Positions 5,857 through 43,777 of a DNA stretch of 64,000 nt are shown piece by piece (within the stretch, counting starts at the first letter, position 1; each line of letters opens with the position of its first letter). The translations under genes were made by a program, and so were the position numbers. Under the pieces are notes generated by a model. That model saw nothing but the letters and a program-made list of their open reading frames with translations, was not told the DNA's origin and ran no database searches. Source of the DNA: Escherichia coli (GTDB taxonomy: Bacteria > Pseudomonadota > Gammaproteobacteria > Enterobacterales > Enterobacteriaceae). The stretch lies in the NCBI GenBank assembly GCA_902500205.1, contig GCA_902500205.1_4868.1; one strand, 5' to 3'.

Positions 5857-5930
5857 GCTCCACTAGGCTCATCCTATCTTCGGATACGGGTGAGTCTTTT
5901 TATTTTATTAATTGCATTCAAAAAGAACTG

Positions 5931-22698: not shown

Positions 22699-22705
22699 GT
22701 CACTA

Positions 22706-22756
22706 GGCGTACTCTCTTCGGGGAGTACGCCAATCTTATTTTTTTTATTTTTTTGG
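22706..22756 (+). terminator. intrinsic terminator
   Basis: Hairpin GGCGTACTC-TCTTCGG-GGAGTACGCC followed by a long T-run. Confidence 0.7.
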
Positions 22757-23289
22757 TTACTTTTTAACCAACCGGTTAAAGGGGTCTGGGAAGCATCAGA
22801 AAACGATTAGGTGGTATCGACGTAGGGTAGCTCGTTTTTGGCAGTTTATCGTTTTCTAGGGTCTGTTACGTGCGTTTTAGAGGGGGTTATGTATCGAGAC
22901 AGAGAATTTATTTTTGTCGGGGCGAGGAAATTCAGGGAATGGGGATTCAGGATTGTATGTTTTTTAACCAGTTATTAAAAACGCTCTAGAAAGCGCTAGA
23001 ACGAGATTTAACTCAGACCCAGTACACTTGGGTTCCCTATACCGGAAAATCGCGCCAGCGGGCCGCTGAGAGCGCGAGAGAGCCATTCCCGTTTCGGTTC
23101 CGAGGTGACGGTCGCGGCCGGCGACGACGATCACACGTTGGGTAGCACTTCGTGCCATGTCTGGGTGAAAACTGGATCGTTCTGTAACCGACACACACTG
23201 TCGGTTACTTACGAGTTCTTTGGGTTGTTTAATTCACTCTAAAATCCCCCTTAGGGGATAATTTAATCTAATTCTCAAAATTTCTTTTT

Positions 23290-23560
23290 AAAACAATCAC
23301 TTAGATTGTTTTTTAGATTGATCCTGTGGATCGGGTCGAAGACCCTTTCCTTATACGCGTGCGCGTGCGCGCACCCGTATCCTCCAGGATCTTTTAAAAT
23401 ATATAATAATATTAAATATAATAATACCTTTAGGTATTATATTTAATTATTATAATTATTTATATAAATAAATATATTAATATATTAAGATCTTAAAACG
23501 CGTGCGGGCGCGCGCGTGATCCTTATTAAGAGATCGTGATCGGACGGAAGACCGAGATCG
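23290..23560. promoter_or_regulatory. GATC-rich AT island flanked by alternating CG tracts; candidate origin-like or unwinding element
   Basis: 8 GATC sites within 239 bp; a roughly 105-bp almost pure A/T core (23392..23497); flanking tracts ACGCGTGCGCGTGCGCGCAC and ACGCGTGCGGGCGCGCGCGTG; inverted repeat AAAACAATC..GATTGTTTT at 23290..23312. Confidence 0.4.
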
Positions 23561-24467
23561 GGTACCCTGTGTATTTTTTACGTGGTTTCCCTATCGTGTG
23601 TTCAGACCACCACTCGATGTCCAAAAACCCATAGCTTCGGTGGTCGCCTCCCTGGTCGGTAGACTCTGACAAGTCGACCCACACCACCAACCCGTCCGGG
23701 GACGGATTTTTATTCCAACGACAAGCTCCACGAAAATCCCCGCAGAGGGACTCACTGCTGTGTGACTCACCGGCTCCTGGACGCCTACGCCTCGAGCCGG
23801 TAATTTTTTGATTACGTGAGTTTGTTGTTATATGCGAATAGCGATTGACCGCGCCAATGGTCCAATCACTTTTTAAACCCTGCACGCTAGGGCTCCAAGT
23901 CCTGGGATTGATACCCAGGACGCTTTTTCGAAAATACCTGCCGTGGTGTCTTCGACAAAGCGCAATCTAACACTGCGTGATTTATTATGTTCTGGAAAAC
24001 TTTCGCCGTGGAACAGAACCGGTGAGCGTCGGCGGGGATTCCGACAATCACCACCCATTCAGGTACTCGGTAGATAACCGACCTGCCGACGGTGCTACGT
24101 CGGGCGTAGTTCGGTTTGCGAGAGTGTCGAGAAAGTCGACTGCGCACCCATGACAAAATCCGAGTTGACCGTGGCAGCGCCAGAGGACTGGGCAGCGGAG
24201 AGACGTCGTTGAACTTACCTCCGATAGTTATCGCTGATTCCGCTCTGGCGTCGGGCCAAAACTGATTCGAATTCGGCGTTGCGTCGAAAAGGGGTCTGCG
24301 TGTAGAACCGCAGACTTGGGGGATAACTCCAAAGTGGGGTGATCGGATCTTGACGGCTCGGAATAGACGAGAGGGGTGGGTACTCCCGTTGAGAAACGAC
24401 GGTACCTGGCTGATTAAAATTTACAGATTCTGCGTGAGGTATGATAAACCAAACGGAGAATTAAACC

Positions 24468-25043
24468 ATGAACTTGTATCGCGTCGGGTTTTACCGAAAC
24501 GAGATGCCTGAATCGGTTTTGGTTGTCTTAGCCGAAAACGAGGAGCAGGCCAAATCCTTCTGGCCGGTTAGCGCAGAGCGTCCAGCGGTTGCGTGCTGCT
24601 ACGACGGCGCTGTGTCTACCCCGATGGTTACGCCTGGGGTGGTTCTGAAGCAAGGCCGATGGGAAGATTACTCCCATCCCGGTTTGGAGTTTGTTTCCGA
24701 ACCTGCCAGACATTCCTGGGAATTTCCCTCAGGCAACACCGAGACGTATTTCGGATTTCAGGTTAAACAACCTTCGACGCTCAAACTGTACCTGGTGTAC
24801 AGCGACGCCGCTACCGAAGACTACGTCGATTCCGGAATCATCGTCGGGGCAACAACCCCTGCTGCGGCATTCGCACATTGGGACGGTGATAAACCCGGAA
24901 TCGTTTCGGTCTGTGAGCTACCACTTGAAGCCGGTTTGGTTACGAACATCAAGTGTGAGCAAGGCCAGGAGCTGACTTGGATGCGCCAGGATTACCTGAC
25001 GGAAACGACATTCGAATACACACCGAGGAGGGTGACCCAATGA
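24468..25043 (+). CDS. hypothetical protein, translationally coupled to the HslV-like peptidase; N-terminus paralogous to gene 25766
   Basis: ATGA overlap with the next gene; shares MNLY...VV.A..EEQA N-terminal pattern with 25766..26008. Confidence 0.55.
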   Translation: MNLYRVGFYRNEMPESVLVVLAENEEQAKSFWPVSAERPAVACCYDGAVSTPMVTPGVVLKQGRWEDYSHPGLEFVSEPARHSWEFPSGNTETYFGFQVKQPSTLKLYLVYSDAATEDYVDSGIIVGATTPAAAFAHWDGDKPGIVSVCELPLEAGLVTNIKCEQGQELTWMRQDYLTETTFEYTPRRVTQ

Positions 25044-27047: not shown

Positions 27048-27117
27048 GGCTTTGTAGCTCAGGTAGGTAGAGCAGCCTCTTCGAGGAAGGTCGCCGGTTC
27101 GAGACCGGTCAAAGCAA
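27048..27117 (+). pseudogene. tRNA-like element with truncated anticodon arm (degenerate tRNA?)
   Basis: Good acceptor (6 of 7 bp), D-arm GCTC-AGGTAGGTA-GAGC and T-arm GCCGG-TTCGAGA-CCGGT, but the anticodon arm is only CCTC-TTC-GAGG. Confidence 0.3.
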
Positions 27118-41825: not shown

Positions 41826-43777
41826 GTGAGAAAGGTACCAAAATTCTACGGAATATCCGGCCGGTTGGTTAGTCAGGATAACTATTTGTCCGATTTGCAA
41901 ATAGAAGCTGCTGCCAAAGGTATTAAACCACCCACTATTATTAACGATGTCGCCGTTAACGGGGATGCGATCGAGGTTGCTGAACTTATCGATCGCATGG
42001 TACAGAACAGAATCGTTGACGAAGAACTGAACTCTGCACCGATTTGTAGTTTGGATTGTCCGGCACCGATCGCGCATCGTTACAATCTCGGTTGTAAGTG
42101 TCCGACGTGTGGCTATGTTGTAACTGAACATCGAATTGAATCCGATGTCTGGTTACGTGCACCCGATGAAATGGGTAACTTCGTCAACCCACGATTCTGG
42201 GCAATGTTCAATGCTTTCTTTAATAGCAAGTTGAAGAAGTTTGAACGTAACAAGGTCACTATCGAACGCGGTAATGACTTGATGATGTGGATGATTGACC
42301 CGTATTACCGTATAGAAGAACCAGACGGTAAACGCGCACATGCTGTGAAACGTGTATTGGAAGAACATGGTTTCGTTCGTGGCTTGCGCAATCTGGTTGA
42401 TAACCACGTTAGTATCTTTAACATCCTTACCACGCCAGAAGCCTGGAAGGAAATCTTCGCACCTAATCGGCATAACGCCGCTGAAGGTGAACGCTTACGT
42501 TTACAATGGAAGGAGCTATTCGAAACGCAACGCCATGCATTCTTCCCAAGACACTTACCGCTAATCTCCTCTAAGCTTATCGTTACTGAGGAAGGTCGTC
42601 GTGGTGTCATGGTAGACCCAGTGTTCACGGGTGCTATCGATGCGGTGAAAAATATCGCGTTACTTTATACGCGGCGTAAAGCGATCGAACCACGTTTTCT
42701 GATTAGTCGCGCTTTGAAAGCCAACCGTCAGTTAACGTACTTCCACATGGACTTCCGTCGTGAGTCTATGGAAGGTAAACCGGGTGACTATCGTGCGAAA
42801 TTGGGTTCTACCCATATCCCATTCGGTGGTCGTGCAACCATCTCACCTATCTCAGAACCACACGATGCCTGGAAGTTAAAAGCACCATGGCGTTGGATGG
42901 TTGGGTTGATGTCGACCCACATCGAGAACAAACTGCTACGACGGGGTTATTCGTCACGGCAATGTGAACGTATCGTTGCAAAAGCGGCAATGCAGTATGA
43001 CCCGCTTGTAGATGAAATCTTTAAAGAACTGATTCGTGAATCCCCAGGCGGTCTTGGGATCATGGTCATACCGCTACGTAACCCAACGCTGGTACAGTTG
43101 TCTATTCAAACGCTGTACATCGATGAAGTTGTTACCGATGTTAACCAGTGTTCGCTGCGTATCTCTGACCGTGTGATCAAGATGGCTAACGGTTCGAAAA
43201 GAGCCCCATCGGACGGGAAACCTCTGATGCGTATTCTCCTGAAATGCTGGGAAACCCTAAAGCGTATCTACCAGAAATGGGGACGAAAGTCTGAAACAAC
43301 AGATACGATGGCCTACGCTAAACAATACTGCTAACGGTTGTGATAATGGGTAATCAGCAGCGAAGCCTCGTGAGAGGAACGTTCAACGACTATCGCTGAA
43401 ATGCGAGTAGGGGTCCCAGTGGACTTCGAAGTGGGAGAACACCTAAGGCGATAGCTATGGTGAAGATATAGTCTGTGCCTTATCGAGAGATAAGGAGGGT
43501 GTCTTAGCACACCTGCTGTATACGGAAACGGTATACGGTGGACAAACAGGATTTCGATGGCGACCAGTTCCAGGTACGTTTGCCAGTCGATGAAACTGAG
43601 ATGAAGTTGGCGCTCCAATTCCGTCCAGATAACGGCTTTATGTCTTCTACTGATGTGGACCGCGTAGAACACGGCATGGTTTTACATAACGAGCTAATCA
43701 GTATGCAGAACCAGTTCCTTATTGAAGCAGATGAGGATGATGAAGAAGGCATTCCGTTGGAAGCGGTGATGGGCTAA
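41826..43777 (+). CDS. RNA polymerase beta-prime subunit, N-terminal fragment, interrupted by a group I intron (exon 1 from 41826 to about 43166, exon 2 from about 43532 to 43777)
   Basis: Zn-finger-like CSLDC..CKCPTC; NPTLVQLSIQ matches beta-prime APTLHRLGIQ; exon 2 carries DFDGDQFQVRLP (catalytic NADFDGDQ); GTG start with GAGG upstream. Confidence 0.7.
43167..43531 (+). ncRNA. group I self-splicing intron (boundaries approximate)
   Basis: Canonical core elements: Q-like AATCAGCAGC (43351), R GTTCAACGACTA (43381..43392), S AAGATATAGTC (43463..43473, identical to the Tetrahymena S element), P9 hairpin CCTTATC..GATAAGG; 5' exon can end in T and intron in G with frame restored. Confidence 0.7.

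Follow-up and report, generated by a model that had tools for sequence, protein, structure and literature searches.

Dam-site-cluster origins and pac sites are both known kinds of cis-acting element. Escherichia coli oriC and phage P1 oriR are rich in Dam sites (GATC) and contain an A/T-rich unwinding element. P1 pac consists of two groups of Dam sites about a centre of approximately 100 bp, lies within the terminase gene and is found in a phage with its own Dam-type methylase. T4 oriF and oriG, the T7 primary origin and herpesvirus oriS, oriL and oriLyt each have an A/T-rich, partly palindromic unwinding region between transcription units. These origins adjoin phage-specific promoters, and promoters and non-coding units also flank the lytic origins of T4, T7 and herpesviruses; HSV oriL is hard to sequence or assemble. 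A unique origin is not obligatory, as T4 sets the precedent that large phages can replicate mainly by recombination without one. In the literature examined, no replication origin or pac site has been defined for SPN3US-type or other nucleus-forming jumbo phages.

The window (the whole stretch of DNA analysed, 64 kb) belongs to an SPN3US-like jumbo phage (Seoulvirus, about 240 kb). It contains a non-coding element of approximately 330 bp (about 23277-23600), single copy in the genome, in which three independent genome-wide extremes (GATC cluster, duplex instability and alternating purine-pyrimidine run) fall together within 270 bp. Judged on its sequence, the element may be the phage's replication origin, marked by Dam methylation and with an unwinding core; we put this forward tentatively, as a plausible assignment that falls somewhat short of probable. 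The combination of features is new, and is undescribed for nucleus-forming jumbo phages in the literature examined. Features of the element and its downstream neighbours are as follows (window coordinates; strand is given where one applies).

23277-23303 (+ strand): left motif AAAATTTCTTTTTAAAACAATCACTTA, A/T-rich and conserved; consensus AAAAATTCTTTTTAAAACA-N3-ACTTA, aligned in 12 of 12 phages
23290-23312: inverted repeat AAAACAATC-ACTTA-GATTGTTTT, read from the sequence
23320-23332: left distal pair of GATC sites (23320 and 23329); the presence of GATC is kept between phages, the positions are not
23352-23380: left CG tract TATACGCGTGCGCGTGCGCGCAC, a palindrome (ATACGCGTGCGCG/CGCGCACCCGTAT) with a 23-nt alternating purine-pyrimidine run at 23352-23374
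23380-23395: invariant block TCCTCCAGGATCTTTT at the left edge of the core; TCCT-nC-AGGA palindrome plus GATC 23388
23392-23497: A/T core, a candidate DNA-unwinding element; 106 bp, 94% A+T, the least stable 100-bp duplex of the genome
23421-23440: core palindrome 1, ATAATACCT-tt-AGGTATTAT, carrying four of the six G/C bases of the core
23485-23496: palindrome TTAAGATCTTAA at the right edge of the core, with GATC 23489 (includes AGATCT)
23498-23517: right CG tract ACGCGTGCGGGCGCGCGCGT, which repeats the left tract directly and is self-complementary; in relatives, between 6 and about 25 nt long
23516-23535: conserved right block GTGATCCTTATTAAGAGATC, with GATC at 23518 and 23532
23538-23559: right distal GATC sites (23538 and 23556) and a non-conserved GATCGGACGGAAGACC repeat copy, replaced in SPN3US
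23577-23600 (+ strand): class-C-like promoter motif TTTACG-N14-TGTG (TGTG for TATG), abutting the right edge of the element and facing away from the core; conserved in relatives
23600-23935 (+ strand): three short units, each ending in a hairpin and T-run; conserved in SPAsTU and pEa_29
24330-24425 (+ strand): structured-RNA-like block ATCTTGRCGGCTCGGAAWAGACGAGAGGGGTGGGT...hairpin...CTGGCTGA, immediately followed by another promoter-like motif and an ORF

Like oriC and P1 oriR, the element is rich in Dam sites and has an A/T-rich putative unwinding element, and a Dam enzyme is available to the phage. It carries 8 GATC in 240 bp, compared with 11 in 232 bp in E. coli oriC. GATCT-type motifs border its core (GATCTTTT at 23388 and GATCTCTT on the minus strand at 23535), both directed inward, and GATCTNTT is found facing inward at both edges of the core, a likeness that is a lead only, with weak statistics. 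In local alignment with MG1655 oriC, the right block (GTGATC-CTTATTAAGAGATCG) shows a weak, 20-nt similarity to the 13-mer M region (GTGATCTCTTATT-AG-GATCG). The oriC resemblance was matched by 1 to 6 of 300 shuffles, which did not preserve GATC. In contrast to oriC, the core is far longer and purer in A/T, and the CG palindromes flanking it have no oriC counterpart. No DnaA boxes (TTATNCACA, strict or relaxed) and no IHF consensus were found in 23200-23700, nor were there iteron arrays (at least three direct initiator-binding repeats) by the A/T region, where the repeats are just two-copy direct repeats (D1 and D3) and palindromes. With neither DnaA boxes nor iterons, the element lies outside the oriC and P1 oriR families. 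A host-type (DnaA-dependent) origin was rejected: DnaA and IHF sites are lacking, and the likeness to oriC is weak.

With the origins of T4, T7 and herpesviruses named above, the element shares an A/T-rich, partly palindromic candidate unwinding region placed between transcription units and beside phage promoter-like motifs, and like HSV oriL it resists sequencing or assembly. It differs from them in that the sole promoter class recognised beside it faces away from the core, and its GATC cluster is not a feature of theirs. No sites comparable to UL9 initiator boxes were identified in the element.

Genomic setting and sequence extremes

Megablast with 22700-24470 retrieved 35 phage records at 92 to 99% identity, almost all of them SPN3US-like Salmonella jumbo phages. 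A blastn search of 5,426 E. coli genomes gave a phage-like 'plasmid' as its sole match and no homology to host oriC. Homology to the E. coli chromosome or to a true plasmid was rejected, as only two phage genomes deposited as plasmids match.

The element lies in an ORF-free spacer of 1.77 kb (22699-24467), with a 169-aa ORF on one side and a 191-aa ORF on the other. The first-pass annotation had described a 1.7-kb stretch with no convincing ORF; this is correct for the spacer, but the stretch is not empty, since promoter-like motifs, terminator-like hairpins and conserved blocks resembling structured RNA occur in it. Upstream of the element, the large terminase gene is 4 kb away, and an HslV-like gene and tRNA-Trp are downstream of the spacer. 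PHROGs matches of the flanking ORFs (377, 169 and 191 aa) are solely to families of unknown function, and sequence searches of Pfam and PDB with these ORFs gave no match, so that no recognisable initiator gene adjoins the element. The 191-aa ORF (24468-25043), for which Pfam and PHROG searches gave no match, is present in the window and in SPLA5c and missing from SPN3US, where the HslV-like gene directly adjoins the spacer. Elsewhere in the window, a second, weak tRNA-like gene (36 bits) is found at 27048-27117, 1.4 kb past tRNA-Trp, and a group I intron (Rfam, 69 bits) at 43174-43495, in the region of an RNA polymerase beta-like gene.

The first-pass annotation had drawn attention to eight GATC sites in about 240 bp, and all eight are there (23320, 23329, 23388, 23489, 23518, 23532, 23538 and 23556), three to the left and five to the right of a 101-bp gap. 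The whole SPN3US genome was assembled for genome-wide comparison. The next-best 270-bp stretch held three GATC in the 64-kb window and four in the entire 240-kb SPN3US genome, against eight in the element; similar density by chance elsewhere, which would have made the cluster unremarkable, does not occur. GATC is the most depleted 4-base palindrome of SPN3US, with 489 sites observed and 1207 expected (ratio 0.40). Other depleted 4-mers in this genome are CTAG (observed/expected 0.59) and AATT (0.70).

Likewise, the almost pure A/T core of roughly 105 bp with internal palindromes proved real. At 23394-23498, 99 of 105 bases are A/T, the next-best stretches in the 64-kb window having 77 (adjacent) and 74, and the palindromes inside are perfect. 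In SPN3US the core has 95 A/T in 100 bp, while the next-best stretch of the genome has 74. No other 100-bp duplex in the 240 kb is as unstable (dG -87.9; mean -140.1 +/- 6.1; z 8.5, with 4.6 for the runner-up). The left CG tract provides the third extreme, with 23 nt of uninterrupted purine-pyrimidine alternation; the next longest such run in SPN3US has 16 nt.

Alternating CG tracts do bracket the core, at 23352-23374 and 23498-23517, but the description of their orientation needs correcting. The tracts are direct repeats of each other (D1; 25 nt, 80% identical, 143 bp apart) and, as each is self-complementary, an inverted orientation has no specific support. The 23-nt alternating run and the perfect palindromes are of the kind that marks Z-DNA- and cruciform-prone DNA, and on sequence the CG tracts and palindromes, in their A/T context, have the potential to adopt either structure.

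Ahead of the core, the inverted repeat formed by AAAACAATC and GATTGTTTT is present at 23290-23312, as originally reported. It overlaps the left motif (23277-23303), which occurs once in 240 kb, fits neither promoter class A nor class C (described below) and may be a promoter-like or protein site. The GATCGG(N)CGGAAGACC repeats, suggested earlier as protein targets, exist as two direct copies (23329-23344 and 23538-23553; 81% identical), but they are not conserved. The right copy is already replaced in SPN3US and thus the repeats are probably no functional unit. Other blocks, not singled out at that stage, are invariant.

Conservation and turnover among related phages

The same architecture is found in the same syntenic spacer in five lineages: Seoulvirus (including the divergent SPAsTU and pEa_29), Erskinevirus, Machinavirus, Wellingtonvirus and a fifth lineage of phages of 222 to 228 kb. 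Relatives in the named genera were found by sensitive blastn and by a search anchored on the upstream protein. The fifth lineage was found by a pattern scan and blastn, and is represented by six contigs from metagenomes or MAGs and by two database entries labelled bacterial plasmids; use of the right block as a search pattern gave 10 further contigs. The plan is shared. Its left part comprises, in order, the A/T-rich left motif, a variable hairpin, one to three GATC, CTTTCATTATACGCG, a CG palindrome and TCCTnCAGGATCTTTT. The right part continues with the A/T core, AAAACGCG, a second CG palindrome, GATCCTTATTAnGAGATC, more GATC and a TTTAC(A/G)-N14-T(A/G)TG motif.

Two of the fifth-lineage records are of interest in their own right. 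A 222-kb circular 'plasmid' of Enterobacter ludwigii (NZ_CP134650.1, 84193-90317) is an SPN3US-group phage genome, which carries the element and whose anchor protein is 56.6% identical. Another such phage is presumably the 222-kb 'plasmid' recorded for E. coli strain 98232 (NZ_CP173450.1), which blastn matched to the element. The deposition of phage genomes as plasmids suggests a carrier state, pseudolysogeny or contamination of isolate assemblies. The fifth lineage is also common in metagenomes (L036-L042).

Across the five lineages the spacer around the element has diverged past alignability, and in the 12-sequence alignment its mean identity is 55%. The 16-nt block TCCTnCAGGATCTTTT is identical, save at the n position, in all 12 aligned phages of four genera, and the fifth lineage has the variant TTCCTTTAGGATC. 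The right block with its first GATC (in a CGCG-N-GATCCTTAT context) is present in 12 of the 14 sequences tabulated, and GAGATC at +14 in 10 of them. The spacer also contains conserved non-coding segments upstream of the element (22960-23160), common to Machinavirus and SPAsTU (for example, CCCAGTACACTTGGG and GATCACACGTTGGGTAGC).

The core is shortest in Wellingtonvirus (64 to 65 bp), spans 95 to 106 bp in the three remaining named genera and is longest, at about 190 bp, in the fifth lineage. Among the seven members of the last that were read, GATC numbers 9 to 11, except for 5 in contig L037, which ends inside the core. Two perfect core palindromes occur in 10 of 12 phages, and in 9 of 12 a second palindrome follows approximately 40 bp beyond core palindrome 1. 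They have stems of 5 to 10 bp and centres of 2 to 3 nt, lie approximately 40 and 80 nt into the core and hold nearly all of its G/C. Since the palindromes are out of register in the MAFFT alignment, column-wise covariation was dropped and they were tested by a per-genome search with shuffles: in the 10 phages that have them, they were matched by 0 to 28 of 1000 shuffles (1 of 1000 for the window). Their sequences differ between phages, the relatives having ATATCTTTAGATAT or TATCCCGTAGGGATA at the position of core palindrome 1. In SPAsTU, pEa_29, pEa_4 and Caitlin the first and second palindromes also differ from each other, which favours a structural role over a single regulator site.

The CG palindromes turn over in the same way. 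Every relative has a palindrome at the position of the left tract, and across relatives the sequence changes while the palindromic and alternating character stays. Single-strand folding gave z-scores of -5.2 and -3.0. Hairpins of unrelated sequence occupy the spot equivalent to 23290-23312 in Asesino, Huxley, SPAsTU, pEa_4, Caitlin and pEa_11, with none clear in Kwan. GATC sites outside the conserved blocks vary in position and context between phages, 5 to 10 being kept. Turnover of position with maintenance of number argues for selection for site density. Together, the three turnovers (CG palindromes, core palindromes and GATC sites) point to selection acting on the DNA itself.

There are two exceptions to the plan. 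In the pEa_4/Caitlin lineage the core and its palindromes are kept with only two to three GATC, so that the GATC cluster is dispensable there. Wellingtonvirus has a core of about 65 bp without G/C palindromes. In Derbicusvirus the syntenic spacer holds a different element, TTTTTTTACAAC..GGGGGATCAAGGGGGG followed by approximately 110 bp of 78% A/T, ATGGAT/ATGAAT repeats and a terminator (CR5 locus 1990-2230).

Hairpins of changed sequence, lying along one strand, could also indicate a transcribed structured RNA, into which the left motif could read as a promoter. We regard this as very improbable. All of the structures are true palindromes and so are present equally on both strands, selection for GATC density and alternating tracts makes sense for DNA and not for RNA, and there is no terminator bounding such an RNA. 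Nor did Rfam 15 yield a match at gathering score or relaxed E-values, the best being chance matches to microRNA precursors (E 0.36 or worse); a known RNA family was rejected, with nothing credible in Rfam. Uniqueness in the genome and conservation in five lineages strongly argue that the element is a cis-acting DNA site.

Promoter-like motifs, packaging and record ends

Three strand-biased classes of promoter-like motif (A, B and C) were derived from the SPN3US genome. Class A (GATAGATATTATCT and an upstream A/T element) fits published jumbo-phage early promoters and probably represents the consensus of early (virion RNA polymerase) promoters in these phages. Eight SPN3US class-A counterparts checked against annotated genes are about 35 to 100 nt upstream of the start codon. 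In the window, class-A sites (consensus aAAnnATnTnaGATAGATATTATCT) are found at 5914, 20980, 28527, 31491, 39719, 39812, 48276, 49692 and 53435, all on the + strand, and there are none in the 1.77-kb spacer. Class B (AATCGACTATTA) is located just upstream of several ribosome-binding sites. For class C (TTTAC[AG]-N14-TATG), SPN3US has 14 sites on the + strand and one on the - strand, compared with 0.55 expected per strand, and the companion pattern TTTAC[AG]-N14-T[AG]TG[TA]T is found five times on the + strand and never on the - strand (0.15 expected). The + strand class-C sites are mostly just upstream of genes, and their TATG recalls the phiKZ late-promoter motif.

The class-C-like motif at the right edge of the element (23577-23600) probably drives the downstream non-coding units. 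The three short units that follow, which end in G/C hairpins with T-runs at 23692-23715, 23767-23812 and 23899-23930, are candidate small RNAs. A further class-C motif is present at 24421-24444. Before it, the block at 24330-24425 consists of ATCTTGRCGGCTCGG-AAWAGA-CGAGAGGGGTGGGT, a hairpin with a stem that changes between genera and then CTGGCTGA, and is found in all lineages. It has no match in Rfam and is a candidate for a new structured RNA or leader; several relatives have small ORFs annotated over the equivalent block. Promoter-like motifs, terminator-like hairpins and conserved blocks around it thus place the element between non-coding transcription units.

Given this setting, the element might be a transcription-control region of a non-coding RNA locus, with the A/T island and GATC sites forming a Dam-modulated upstream or insulator element for the class-C promoter and separating two non-coding transcription units. 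The class-C-like motif at its right edge, the conserved promoter-like motif at its left and the terminator-like hairpins and conserved RNA-like blocks that fill the remainder of the spacer are all consistent with such a region. However, at least 14 other class-C sites and all class-A sites lack an island of this kind, and the extreme features and covarying DNA palindromes go beyond the needs of a promoter; we consider transcription control unlikely. A generic phage promoter was rejected, as the core fits none of the three SPN3US motif classes.

The GATC clusters are bipartite (three left and five right, about 100 bp apart) and the phage genome includes a Dam-type methylase gene, two features reminiscent of P1 pac and P1 Dmt. 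In a P1-type pac site, terminase would recognise the two Dam-methylated clusters and make its first cut in the A/T core, with methylation timing packaging. The large terminase gene 4 kb upstream and the many independent assemblies that end inside the core are in keeping with this, but we consider it doubtful, though the main rival to an origin, for several reasons. While P1 pac is within the terminase gene, the element is neither in nor beside such a gene but in a non-coding spacer. The 87 GATC sites of 14 phages show no extended hexamer consensus like TGATCA/G in P1. A core of 100 to 190 bp with up to 96% A+T is unusual for pac. In addition, phiKZ-type terminases are classed as headful and are viewed as packaging without a defined signal; PhageTerm analysis of two other giant phages gave no obvious termini.

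Records that start or end in or beside the element are those of SPN3US, SPFM2, SPFM16, SPFM17, SEGD1, EC001, Lh1B, JN03, Proteus phage 7 and three metagenome contigs. Ends fall at core palindrome 1 (SPFM2, Proteus phage 7, SPFM16 and metagenome contig L037), at 23482/23483 (SPFM17, SEGD1, EC001, Lh1B and JN03) and at the right edge (L043 and L039). The ends appear to be technical. Bases are missing at the junction in SPN3US (57 bp), Proteus phage 7 (35 bp) and SPFM17 (225 bp), SEGD1 lacks the core and has an inverted fold-back copy at its end (a chimera), and 17 bp overlap at the palindrome in SPFM2. This fits coverage loss and palindrome-induced assembly failure, and record starts were rejected as decisive proof of physical ends.

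Since the SPN3US record and several more begin or finish at this point, some visibly damaged, the element itself could be an artefact of joined genome ends or mis-assembly. The chance of this is practically negligible. The full element is internal and colinear in at least 13 independent records, as well as in circular records and metagenome contigs of different lineages, with its features conserved, and these many internal copies exclude an artefact.

A separate database fault affects the SPFM records. The opening few kb of the SPFM1 ENA record consist of 60-nt lines whose order is reversed, not reverse-complemented, giving approximately 27 colinear-reversed BLAST pieces, which is database corruption. 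The records concerned are LR535901, LR535903-08, LR535911-13 and LR535917; the other ten, with 17 to 27 BLAST pieces, are presumed to be corrupted likewise.

A candidate Dam-marked replication origin

Among the SPN3US genes is one for a Dam-family adenine methylase (Pfam PF02086; TIGR00571, 241 bits; E 1e-54 to E. coli Dam), which each of the four named genera retains. According to the literature, host proteins are probably kept away from the DNA of nucleus-forming phages. With its own Dam the phage has its own means of GATC methylation, which is relevant if the phage nucleus excludes host proteins.

The origin-like architecture proposed in the first-pass annotation stands as far as the candidate unwinding core, the Dam-site cluster and the G/C-rich flanks are concerned, and an origin is the best fit to them. 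It is weakened by the lack of DnaA boxes, iterons and IHF sites, and a pac site and transcription control are viable alternatives. Cumulative GC skew tracks gene strand and does not turn at the element, which is weak evidence for phages.

For a replication origin, we infer unwinding, protein binding, methylation control and initiation at the element, in the following manner. Unwinding would take place in the 106-bp A/T core. Melting would be confined by the G/C-rich alternating palindromes that flank the core, which may form Z-DNA or cruciforms under negative supercoiling. Once the core had opened, its short G/C-containing palindromes could be extruded as hairpins. The edge blocks TCCTnCAGGATCTTTT and GATCCTTATTAnGAGATC would be recognition sites of a putative phage protein. 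The flanking GATC clusters would be methylated by the phage Dam-family enzyme or that of the host, and their full or hemi-methylated state might mark recent firing, as it does at oriC and P1 oriR. The neighbouring promoter-like motifs may activate or prime initiation.

A bolder proposal is that the element is a master cis-site of nucleus-forming jumbo phages: a supercoil-sensing origin gated by the phage Dam, possibly also the start of packaging, with edges that imitate the GATCT repeats of oriC. This we hold to be decidedly unlikely.

The element explains the breaks, gaps and chimeras at this point in many public genomes of the group. A role as an origin or pac site would give the conserved phage dam gene a function in a genome otherwise purged of GATC. 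A single, sharply bounded, conserved candidate of approximately 330 bp makes it directly testable how nucleus-forming phages begin replication within their protein shell.
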